DNA of 64,000 nt from the NCBI GenBank assembly GCA_963675785.1, contig OY776562.1:608001-672000 (forward strand), in the 5' to 3' direction. A program made the translations under genes and the position numbers. The notes under the pieces were generated by a model. That model worked only from the letters and a program-made list of their open reading frames with translations. It was not told where the DNA came from and searched no databases. Positions 45,124-46,839 of the stretch are shown piece by piece; position 1 is the stretch's first letter, and each line of letters begins with the position of its first letter. This stretch comes from Anaerolineae bacterium. Lineage in GTDB: Bacteria > Chloroflexota > Anaerolineae > UBA1429.

Positions 45124-46839
45124 GTGAAAAAGACATTTGCACTTGTCGTTAGCTTGCTGGTCATTGCAAGCATGGTGCTGTCGGGCTGTTCGCAGCCCAC
45201 TGCCACCCCCGCTCCCACATCTGCCCCAGATCCGACGGCTACTACGGCCGCTGCGACCGCCGAGCCCGAAGCCACGGCAGTGTCGGAAGTTACTACTGAG
45301 CCAGAAGCTACCACAGAGGTCGTATCTGAACTTTTGTGGACTCCTGAGCTCTTGCAGGCTTTCTCTGCCGCAATTGACCGCGAAGAGCTGGTCGATCGCG
45401 TTTTTGAAGGCCGTAACACCCCGGCCTATTCCATGGTCCCCGAAGACTATCCGTATGCGACCGAGCCCTTCTTGGATGCCTACGGCGAGCGTGACCTGGA
45501 TTTGGCCATTGAGCTGTTGACAGACGCCGGTTACACGGCCGATGCCCCGCTCGAGATTGAGCTTTGGTACCCGCCCGAGCACTATGGCACCACCACTGCT
45601 GATGTGATGCAGGTCCTCAAAGAGCAGCTCGAAGAGACCGGTCTGATCCTGATTGACCTCTCGAGCCAGAACTGGGCTTCTTACGTCGATGCCTTTGTGG
45701 CCGGCGAAATGCCCGTGTTTATGCTTGGTTGGTTCCCCGATTTCGCAGACCCCGACAACTGGCTGACTCCGTTTGCCTCTTGCCTCCAGTCTCCGGATAA
45801 CGGTGTGAACTTTTGCGACGAGGAAATGGACGCTTTGTTGAACGCTGCTGCTTCTTCTTCGGATGCAGCCGAGCGTGAAGAGCTATATCAGCAGATCGGC
45901 GACCTCTATGCTGAACTAGTTCCTACACTTCCGCTGTTCTGGGAATCCGAGTATGTGACCTACCGTGACGGCGTTGAAGGTGTTGATATCGGCTCAACCT
46001 TTGAGTTCAACTATAACGTCCTGAGCTTTGCCGAGGACGCCATCCCCGCTTCCGGCAGCACAGATACCATCATCATCGGCACCACCGATGAGGTGCACAG
46101 CCTGGATGCAAACGATGCCTACGCCACCCATGACTGGGAAATCATCAAGAACACGGGTCGCCCCTTGTTGACCTATGCTCCTGGCGAGACTGAGCTCATC
46201 CCAGGTTTGGCTGAGGCCCTGCCCGAAGTGAGTGATGATGGCCTCACCTATACCTTTAAACTACGCGAAGGTCTGACCTTTGCCGATGGCACGCCCATCA
46301 CCGCTGATTCCTTTGTATACTCTTGGGATCGTCTCAACTCCCTCGAAGGCGAAGTCTCCGGTTTGGTGCAGGTTTACGTCGAAAGCGTCGAGGCTGTGGA
46401 TGACCTGACGGTGGCTTATCATCTCACCGGCACCTACGGTTTCTTCTCAGCATTGGCTGCAACTGCGCCGTTCGTTCCTGTAAACCCCAACACCTTCCCG
46501 GCTGACGAACTCGTTGGTTATCCTGAGACCATTGAGGGCTGTGGTCCGTACGTTATGACCTCCTTGGTTGCTGGTGAGCAGATGGTGCTTGAGGCGAACC
46601 CCGAGTACTTTGGCGACGATGCTGCCTTGATCCCCAACGTCATCATTCGTTACTATGCTGATCCGACGACCATGGCCAACGCTGTGGAAAGCGGCGAGAT
46701 CGACGTTGCCTGGCGTACGCTTGGCCCCGTTGAGGCAGTCCGCCTCTCTGAGGTCGAGGGTTTGAACGTGATTACGGTTGAAGCACCTTCGCTCCGTTAC
46801 CTTGTGTTCAACCATACGTACACTGTGCCTGCTGAATAG
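45124..46839 (+). CDS. Family-5 ABC solute-binding lipoprotein, circularly permuted
   Basis: Lipobox LSGC22; the canonical C-half (AFSAAIDRE...[11 protein letters not shown]) precedes the canonical N-half (IIIGTTD...[14 protein letters not shown]...GCGPY...YLVFN). Confidence 0.9.
   Translation: [571 protein letters not shown]

Follow-up and report, generated by a model that had tools for sequence, protein, structure and literature searches.

The window analysed here is a stretch of 64,000 nucleotides (nt) from an Anaerolineae bacterium (contig OY776562.1, positions 608,001 to 672,000 of the forward strand). The open reading frame (ORF) at positions 45124..46839 of this window encodes a substrate-binding protein (SBP) of family 5 (OppA/DppA, cluster C). 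The binding proteins of ATP-binding cassette (ABC) importers are textbook examples of hinge-bending ligand capture, serve as biosensor scaffolds and are classified by the topology of their chain. The initial annotation of this gene, made from the letters alone, had proposed that the two halves of the protein stand in swapped order, and the analysis confirmed that the window protein is a family-5 SBP lipoprotein, complete and intact, whose circular permutation is real and natural. In the following list of features, the "C-half" is the part that normally stands at the C-terminal side of such proteins and the "N-half" the part that normally precedes it.

44906..44934, + strand: promoter-like site (TTGGCA-17-TATAAT) lying about 190 nt 5' of the SBP gene, a consensus match only (11 of 12 positions).
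45112..45116, + strand: Shine-Dalgarno-like AGGAG, 7 nt 5' of the GTG start, read from the sequence.
45124..46839, + strand: SBP gene (ORF) with a GTG start, encoding a lipoprotein of 571 amino acids (aa).
45124..45189, + strand: signal peptide and predicted lipobox (L-S-G-C, Cys22), aa 1-22, a hydrophobic sequence with a helix at aa 2-21 in the structure model.
45190..45324, + strand: flexible, low-complexity tether rich in Thr, Ala, Pro and Glu, aa 23-67, with a predicted local distance difference test (pLDDT) score below 50 for aa 25-63.
45325..46023, + strand: C-half, aa 68-300, matching Pfam profile positions 216-365, canonical profile positions 295-522 and PDB chain residues of about 270-500.
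45739-45741, + strand: codon of D206, within the C-half, aligned with Asp419 of OppA.
46024..46065, + strand: new joint, aa 301-314, between the two profile matches, bridging what were ancestrally the C-terminus and the mature N-terminus.
46066..46821, + strand: N-half, aa 315-566, matching Pfam profile positions 1-209, canonical profile positions 32-288 and PDB chain residues of about 13-267.
46822..46839, + strand: short C-terminal tail (aa 567-571, with a DSSP strand at 567-569) and stop codon.

The promoter scan gave three sites in the scanned region compared to 1.5 expected from shuffles. The protein carries a signal peptide that ends in a lipobox with a Cys, and this residue, Cys22, was almost invariant in an alignment of permuted sequences; lipidation is therefore predicted. 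Lipid-anchored SBPs would be in keeping with the Chloroflexota cell envelope, which is described as monoderm-like.

When the protein was compared with Pfam, PF00496 (SBP_bac_5) was matched with 254.4 bits compared to a cut-off of 32.4, which places the protein in the family. The match fell into two stretches in inverted order, with aa 74-222 aligned to profile positions 216-365 and aa 357-565 aligned to positions 1-209 (of 368). A phmmer search of the PDB matched 100 distinct sequences at E<=0.001, and the alignments were inverted as well: residues 315-565 and 71-276 of the window protein aligned to residues 19-266 and 270-470 of CtaP (5isu_A), respectively, and residues 314-553 and 79-259 aligned to residues 13-267 and 292-470 of OppA (1b05_A), respectively. 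Against a profile built from 78 unmodified homologs of canonical order, the native protein gave two inverted matches, positions 295-522 at aa 74-301 (294 bits) and positions 32-288 at aa 307-565 (314 bits). When aa 64-311 were moved behind aa 312-571 in silico, a single match was obtained that covered profile positions 38-522 with 618 bits. The native protein is not collinear with the family profile, and collinearity was regained by the swap.

These are the outcomes that the initial annotation had predicted, namely two partial SBP_bac_5 matches in inverted model order and one full-length match after exchange of the halves. The order that it described, the C-half from about aa 74 and then the N-half, was reproduced in the Pfam, PDB and canonical-profile alignments, and the linker that it placed at aa 301-314 does sit between the two profile matches. 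Chance is excluded by the E-values together with the conservation of the same order in other genomes.

Of 7999 candidates scored in a homolog search, 1010 proteins had E<=1e-10. At least 120 cluster representatives were 65-79% identical to the window protein, each of them collinear with it over 87-100% of the query in one local alignment, and the named homologs among the 120 matches listed were from Anaerolineae/Chloroflexota. In a genome scan, the two halves were mapped by tblastn at the best 80 of 95 confirmed loci. The C-half came before the N-half at 58 of the 80 loci (L001-L057 and L065), including those of four cultured isolates, Ornatilinea apprima P3M-1, Pelolinea submarina MO-CFX1 (complete chromosome), Longilinea arvoryzae KOME-1 and Anaerolinea thermolimosa IMO-1. 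The N-half came first at 15 loci (L059, L060, L062-L064, L066-L073, L077 and L079), and one half alone was found at seven (L058, L061, L074-L076, L078 and L080), one of which, L061, was assigned to the permuted clade on the sequence of its C-half (70% identity). All 59 loci assigned to the clade were from Chloroflexota: 45 from Anaerolineae, six from Chloroflexia, one from Thermoflexia and seven without a class label. The homolog distribution, which had been proposed as a check, thus shows the same order in independent assemblies, isolate genomes included.

The halves lay in one reading frame at 57 of the 58 permuted loci, and a lipobox-type signal was found upstream of the C-half in 54 of these 57 one-frame copies. 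The joint motif, of the type D-A-x-P-A-S-G, was conserved ahead of a T-I-I-I-G-T-T strand in the genomic copies, and P308 and A309 of the window protein were almost invariant in the alignment of permuted sequences. Most genomic copies stop 7-9 residues past V-F-N-H. At three loci on contigs of metagenome-assembled genomes (MAGs), L001, L045 and L065, the N-half of the permuted gene (at L065 the C-half too) was matched in several adjacent, partly overlapping pieces, which suggests frameshifts or indel errors.

Close relatives of canonical order were also found. In an Anaerolineae MAG (locus L059), the ORF at 5827-7461 encodes a 544-aa lipoprotein with its halves in normal order, which shares 62% identity with the N-half and 64% with the C-half of the window protein. 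Three such Anaerolineae orthologs, L059, L060 and P0122, shared 56-64% identity with each half (P0122, 61%). They resemble the window protein in that the L059 protein is a lipoprotein with a long Pro/Thr linker and its gene is followed by an orthologous permease gene (66% identity). They differ from it in that their halves run from N to C, an 8-residue loop stands where the permutant has its termini, and their free ends lie where the permutant has its 14-aa joint. Upstream of the L059 gene, another family-5 SBP gene, less closely related (32% identity to the window N-half), was found with two permeases of its own, at 2008-3654 and 3708-5515, indicating that tandem Opp/Dpp-type systems lie side by side in these genomes.

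For phylogenetic trees, the matched segments were re-ordered to N-then-C and then aligned. The FastTree analysis used 105 rows, after 53 of 158 had been dropped because they were longer than 700 aa or incomplete, and the IQ-TREE analysis (LG+C20+F+G4, quick mode) used 48 hand-chosen rows. All rows of the window clade grouped together in both trees, 12 of 12 with a support of 98 in FastTree and all 10 C-then-N rows with a Shimodaira-Hasegawa-like approximate likelihood ratio test (SH-aLRT) value of 99 in IQ-TREE. In both, the sister of the permuted clade was the group of P0122, L059 and L060 (support 99). Members as distant as P0136 (approximately 41% identity) belong to the permuted clade, which is large and old. 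Since all clade rows stand together as sister to the canonical orthologs, these sequence relationships indicate that the permutation of the window clade arose once, inside the same operon lineage within Chloroflexota.

An AlphaFold2 model of the window protein, for which 54 permuted sequences were aligned, had a mean pLDDT of 90.4 and a predicted TM-score (pTM) of 0.83. Only aa 25-63 fell below 50, and the joint region (blocks 291-320) scored 94-98. The model of the canonical L059 sister reached a pLDDT of 91.7 and a pTM of 0.84. The helix and strand lists of the two models were identical after rotation: 14 elements, from H74-83 to E268-281 in the window protein, corresponded to H316-325 to E509-522 in L059, and 17 elements, from E315-320 to E547-562, corresponded to E58-63 to E291-306. 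The two long hinge strands, E268-281 and E547-562, were kept in the window model, and short terminal strands were present at aa 68-70 and 567-569. In Foldseek searches against the PDB, each half of the window model superposed on OppA/DppA-type chains over 216-263 columns, with target TM-scores (TMt) of 0.32-0.45 and E-values of about 1e-16. In contrast, the L059 model matched the same PDB entries over 489-536 columns with TMt of 0.74-0.90 and E-values of about 1e-42 to 1e-37. The half-length matches of the window model therefore reflect the order of its chain and not divergence. No chain of permuted order was found among the Foldseek matches listed, which had a maximum of 263 columns for the window model.

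The domains of OppA (1B58) are given as I, residues 1-44, 189-269 and 487-517; II, residues 45-188; and III, residues 270-486 (excerpts of PMC6305025). By alignment (residue 553 of the window protein to OppA 267, residue 79 to OppA 292), the RYLVFN strand (aa 558-563) corresponds to approximately OppA 272-277 and the new N-terminal helix to approximately OppA 284-296. The C-half accordingly holds domain III, minus the first strand of that domain, and continues with the second hinge strand and the last domain I segment. The N-half passes through the first domain I segment, domain II and the second domain I segment to the long first hinge strand (E547-562). This strand ends in RYLVFN, which forms the first strand of domain III, and 8 further residues complete the chain. 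Aligned in this way, the sequences place the break in a loop approximately 10-15 residues inside domain III, after the entry of the hinge strand. The model retains the two hinge crossings, and completing the domain-III sheet would fall to the C-terminal strand. The ancestral termini, both in domain I, are spanned by the 14-residue joint. Because the cut lies inside domain III, the lipid tether enters at domain III and not at domain I.

The structural claims of the initial annotation held up as well. It had placed the opening in a domain-III loop, and both flanking elements fall inside OppA residues 270-486. It had considered joining of the native termini feasible because both lie in domain I, which is plausible given the pLDDT of at least 94 at the joint. 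It had moved the tether to the opposite lobe, and the move from domain I to domain III agrees with this. Its description of a complete, intact circular permutant is supported by the profiles, the swap, the order conserved in homologs and the confident model.

Directly downstream of the SBP gene lie the genes of two permeases and two ATPases with oligo_HPY regions.

46926..47948, + strand: permease 1, DppB/OppB-type, 340 aa, with matches to PF00528 and PF19300 and with scores below the equivalog cut-offs of the NCBIfam Opp2B/DppB-like models.
47969..49222, + strand: permease 2, DppC/OppC-type, 417 aa, with PF00528 at aa 232-414 and NCBIfam cores from aa ~190.
49226..50227, + strand: ATPase 1, OppD/DppD-type with an oligo_HPY C-terminal region, matched by PF00005, PF08352 and NCBIfam.
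50098..51240 (ORF as listed), + strand: ATPase 2, OppF/DppF-type, matched by PF00005 and PF08352.

This is the arrangement of an Opp/Dpp operon and it is kept in related loci. The listed ORF of ATPase 2 overlaps ATPase 1 by 130 nt; NCBIfam alignments begin at aa 49-54 and Met45 lies at nt 50230, and the true start is probably this ATG at 50230, directly past the ATPase 1 stop. Permease 1 was 66% identical to the permease downstream of the canonical SBP of L059. Permease 2 carries an extra segment of approximately 140 aa (aa ~60-200; nt ~48146-48568), which follows the first hydrophobic segment and precedes the conserved core. The segment showed 38-54% identity among operons with a permuted SBP and 28-33% identity in the canonical-SBP operons L062-L064 and L066. 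It had no Pfam match (E<=1) and no PDB sequence match (E<=1); a weak DUF7807 Pfam match of permease 2 lay outside it. The idea that the segment is an adaptation to the permuted SBP was rejected, as it also occurs with canonical SBPs (L062-L064 and L066). The permeases and their insert are common to the canonical-SBP operons, and the sequences gave no sign of permease co-adaptation to the permutation.

The SBP gene is the only SBP gene of this complete importer operon, and the same arrangement is kept in the 54 clade loci with flanks that reach the permease genes. In OppA, Asp419 binds the N-terminal amine of the peptide (excerpts of PMC5736914). D206 of the window protein aligned with Asp419 of OppA (1b05_A) and was almost invariant in 54 permuted sequences, as expected of the peptide-binding OppA/DppA subgroup. 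Conservation of this docking Asp makes a peptide, or some other compound bearing a free amine, the probable ligand. E. coli DppA docks with its cleft towards DppB/DppC, and a scoop motif of DppB touches both lobes (excerpts of PMC12136057). Because both lobes are engaged and the tether has approximately 45 disordered residues, the moved anchor would be expected to have a modest effect on docking.

The order of the halves was also examined beyond the window clade. An exhaustive search of 1.84 billion representatives was made, and the architecture of the 150 best matches was typed with the two halves as queries. N-then-C (NC) order was found in 110, and in five more with a split N match; C-then-N (CN) order was found in 18, and in one more with a split N match. 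The others were four CNC, one NCN, nine single halves and two multi-copy proteins. Five CN proteins were sporadic (P0131, P0179, P0182, P0203 and P0213). Each of them grouped with a different canonical protein (support 99-100) and was an exact rotation of this canonical sister at 44-68% identity. On the tree, the CN order required at least six changes, and an approximately unbiased (AU) test, in which the CN group was named after the first tree was seen, rejected a single CN clade (difference in log-likelihood 1325, p = 2.4e-52). The anchor at the C-terminus of P0215 was retained in its permuted sister P0203. P0213 is represented by one sequence from one contig of 3.5 kb, and the other 119 homologs listed for it were all canonical. 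Recurrent permutation among family-5 proteins is likely on this evidence, short of being secured. The sporadic permutants are opened in the same loop as the window protein, between the RYLVFN-type strand and the next helix, and their targeting signals are intact. Unlike members of the window clade, each of them is nearest to a different canonical protein.

Compared with canonical cluster C SBPs (OppA, DppA, MppA, NikA, CtaP/Lmo0135 and YliB/GsiB), the window protein has the same Pfam family, the same operon type and, by its model, the same three domains. Its halves match these proteins at E-values of about 1e-16 (structure) and down to 4e-30 (sequence), and the equivalent of Asp419 is kept. 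It differs from them in the rotation of its chain, with profile positions 295-522 ahead of 32-288, and in the attachment of its tether at domain III. Full-text literature searches, with subscription-only papers outside their reach, yielded no description of an OppA/DppA-type protein that is circularly permuted in nature. One precedent for a naturally permuted SBP was found: the cluster B lipoprotein TpMglB-2 (Tp0684) of Treponema pallidum is circularly permuted, and the authors of that study propose the name "Cluster Bc" and speculate on an adaptation to tethering (excerpts of PMC4990184). The two cases are alike as natural permutations of a tethered SBP lipoprotein of an ABC transporter, with a family across related organisms, and TpMglB-2 still binds its ligand (excerpts of PMC4990184). 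In contrast to the window protein, TpMglB-2 is a cluster B/type I sugar binder outside PF00496 and its breakpoint lies in the N-lobe sheet (excerpts of PMC4990184). Homology to "Cluster Bc" was not found, as PF00496 was the only significant Pfam match of the window protein and all of its PDB matches were to cluster C. The two permutations are unrelated events, resembling each other in kind and not in family, and the cluster C case found here is a new topological variant.

Taken together, we consider it highly probable that the gene encodes a permuted cluster C lipoprotein that serves the Opp/Dpp-type importer encoded directly downstream, and that its permutation had a single origin in an Anaerolineae clade, likely through duplication and trimming. 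After Cys22 and a disordered tether of approximately 45 aa, the chain would begin in domain III just past the first beta-strand, run through domain III and the hinge to the last segment of domain I, and pass over the conserved 14-aa joint. It would then continue through domain I, domain II and domain I again to the second hinge crossing, and finally supply the missing first strand of domain III. As the binding cleft and the two hinge crossings persist, we infer ordinary Venus-flytrap capture of the ligand and its delivery to the permeases. A single event, in an ancestor shared by this Anaerolineae clade and inside the same operon, gave rise to the permutation. It most likely proceeded by tandem duplication of the core in frame, after which the outer halves were lost and the signal peptide was retained. 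This favoured route, which the initial annotation had also suggested, is plausible rather than demonstrated, and its plausibility comes from the in-frame NC-NC fusions that exist in the family.

Several observations weigh against this interpretation or parts of it. Unrelated C-terminal tails were present in four of the 57 genomic copies. A search for longer homologs that might represent an NCNC duplication intermediate near the window clade gave only three distant kinase-SBP fusions, which is weak evidence. A six-frame search of the window with the canonical profile, which could have uncovered relic half-copies, matched the SBP ORF alone and no other family-5 gene, and a direct-repeat search of 44800-47000 gave only short two-copy matches, taken as chance. 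All 11 matches to NCBIfam equivalogs (OppA, DppA, NikA, GsiB, SapA, CntA and Opp4A) were far below the cut-offs, the best being OppA NF011684 with 121 bits compared to a cut-off of 947, and the protein is therefore not an ortholog of any of the named transporters.

The alternative that best survives is that the permutation was adaptive, the shift of the tether from domain I to domain III changing the approach to and docking on the permeases, or relieving strain at the binding site, and hence becoming fixed in a clade whose members are all tethered. The size and age of the clade, with members as distant as P0136, are in line with this. So are the presence of membrane anchors in most of the sporadic permutants and the adaptation to tethering suggested for TpMglB-2 (excerpts of PMC4990184). 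We regard it as unlikely, however, given that the tether consists of approximately 45 disordered residues, that a similarly long linker is found in the canonical sister L059, and that the permeases and the permease-2 insert are shared by canonical and permuted operons.

An origin by fission of the gene into two ORFs that were re-ordered and re-fused, in place of duplication and trimming, is improbable. That no duplication intermediate was found in the clade is weak evidence for it, and half-length fragments did occur among the 150 best representatives (six with the C-half only and three with the N-half only), although these may be just truncated contigs. Fission would need more steps, however, as well as a phase in which one half lacked a signal peptide. 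Moreover, only the core is rotated in P0213 and P0179, each of which retains the signal peptide seen in its canonical sister, and in P0203, which retains the C-terminal anchor seen in its own, and tandem in-frame fusions exist in the family. Duplication of the core with trimming of the outer halves hence remains the favoured route.

That the protein has no role in transport, being a sensor or structural lipoprotein which retains only the fold, is very improbable. Family-5 domains are indeed fused to kinases in some bacteria (P0272-P0274), but here the gene is the sole SBP gene of a complete importer operon and is kept as such in 54 clade loci whose flanks reach the permeases, the Asp of the cleft is conserved, and no other family-5 gene lies in the window. 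The general possibility, raised in the initial annotation, of an assembly or gene-calling artefact in which a canonical gene or two tandem genes were mis-joined and the halves only seem swapped has next to no chance and is effectively refuted by the same order and joint motif at 58 of 80 independent loci (isolate genomes and complete chromosomes included), by the same order in all 120 database homologs listed, and by the single ORF with its signal peptide and confident predicted fold.

The permuted clade and its close canonical orthologs in the same operon form a matched natural pair for questions of folding, dynamics, affinity and docking. The breakpoint marks a loop of the fold that tolerates new termini, which is useful for engineering. 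Order-sensitive annotation and structure searches see only half of such proteins, so that these are prone to be mis-scored or labelled "partial".

A broader reading of the family is that family-5 SBPs are a hotspot of recurrent circular permutation, in which the same domain-III loop would have been opened independently at least six times, each time in another lineage, in addition to other breakpoints. The N-terminal signal and, where one exists, the C-terminal anchor would have been preserved each time, which would point to a general route in which the core is duplicated in tandem and in frame while the targeting modules around it stay fixed, and the Anaerolineae clade would be the one case that grew into a large, old family. 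We see the chances of this as evenly balanced. If it is true, the Anaerolineae clade would be a natural system in which to study the effects of permutation on the folding, hinge dynamics and docking of tethered SBPs.

Other breakpoints were seen in the CNC proteins (P0188, P0189, P0192, P0223 and P0269), which are cut approximately 68 residues into the C-half, and in the NCN protein P0208, cut approximately 60 residues into the N-half. N-terminal membrane helices were present in the CNC and NCN proteins, and C-terminal anchors in some. P0192, P0269 and P0223 were mutually collinear at 34-38% identity, indicating that the CNC proteins are a diverged family of their own.

Proteins with more than one copy of the SBP were also encountered. 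P0195 (2704 aa) is an in-frame tandem array of four canonical NC units. P0272-P0274 (1891-2119 aa) carry two tandem NC units behind protein-kinase domains, and the named records are from an Acidobacteriota MAG. In P0123 (1036 aa), a complete SBP (aa 368-858) is nested in another copy, between profile positions 359 and 363; the loop that holds the insertion is the breakpoint loop of the CNC permutants, and its two N-halves agree at 203 of 249 positions.

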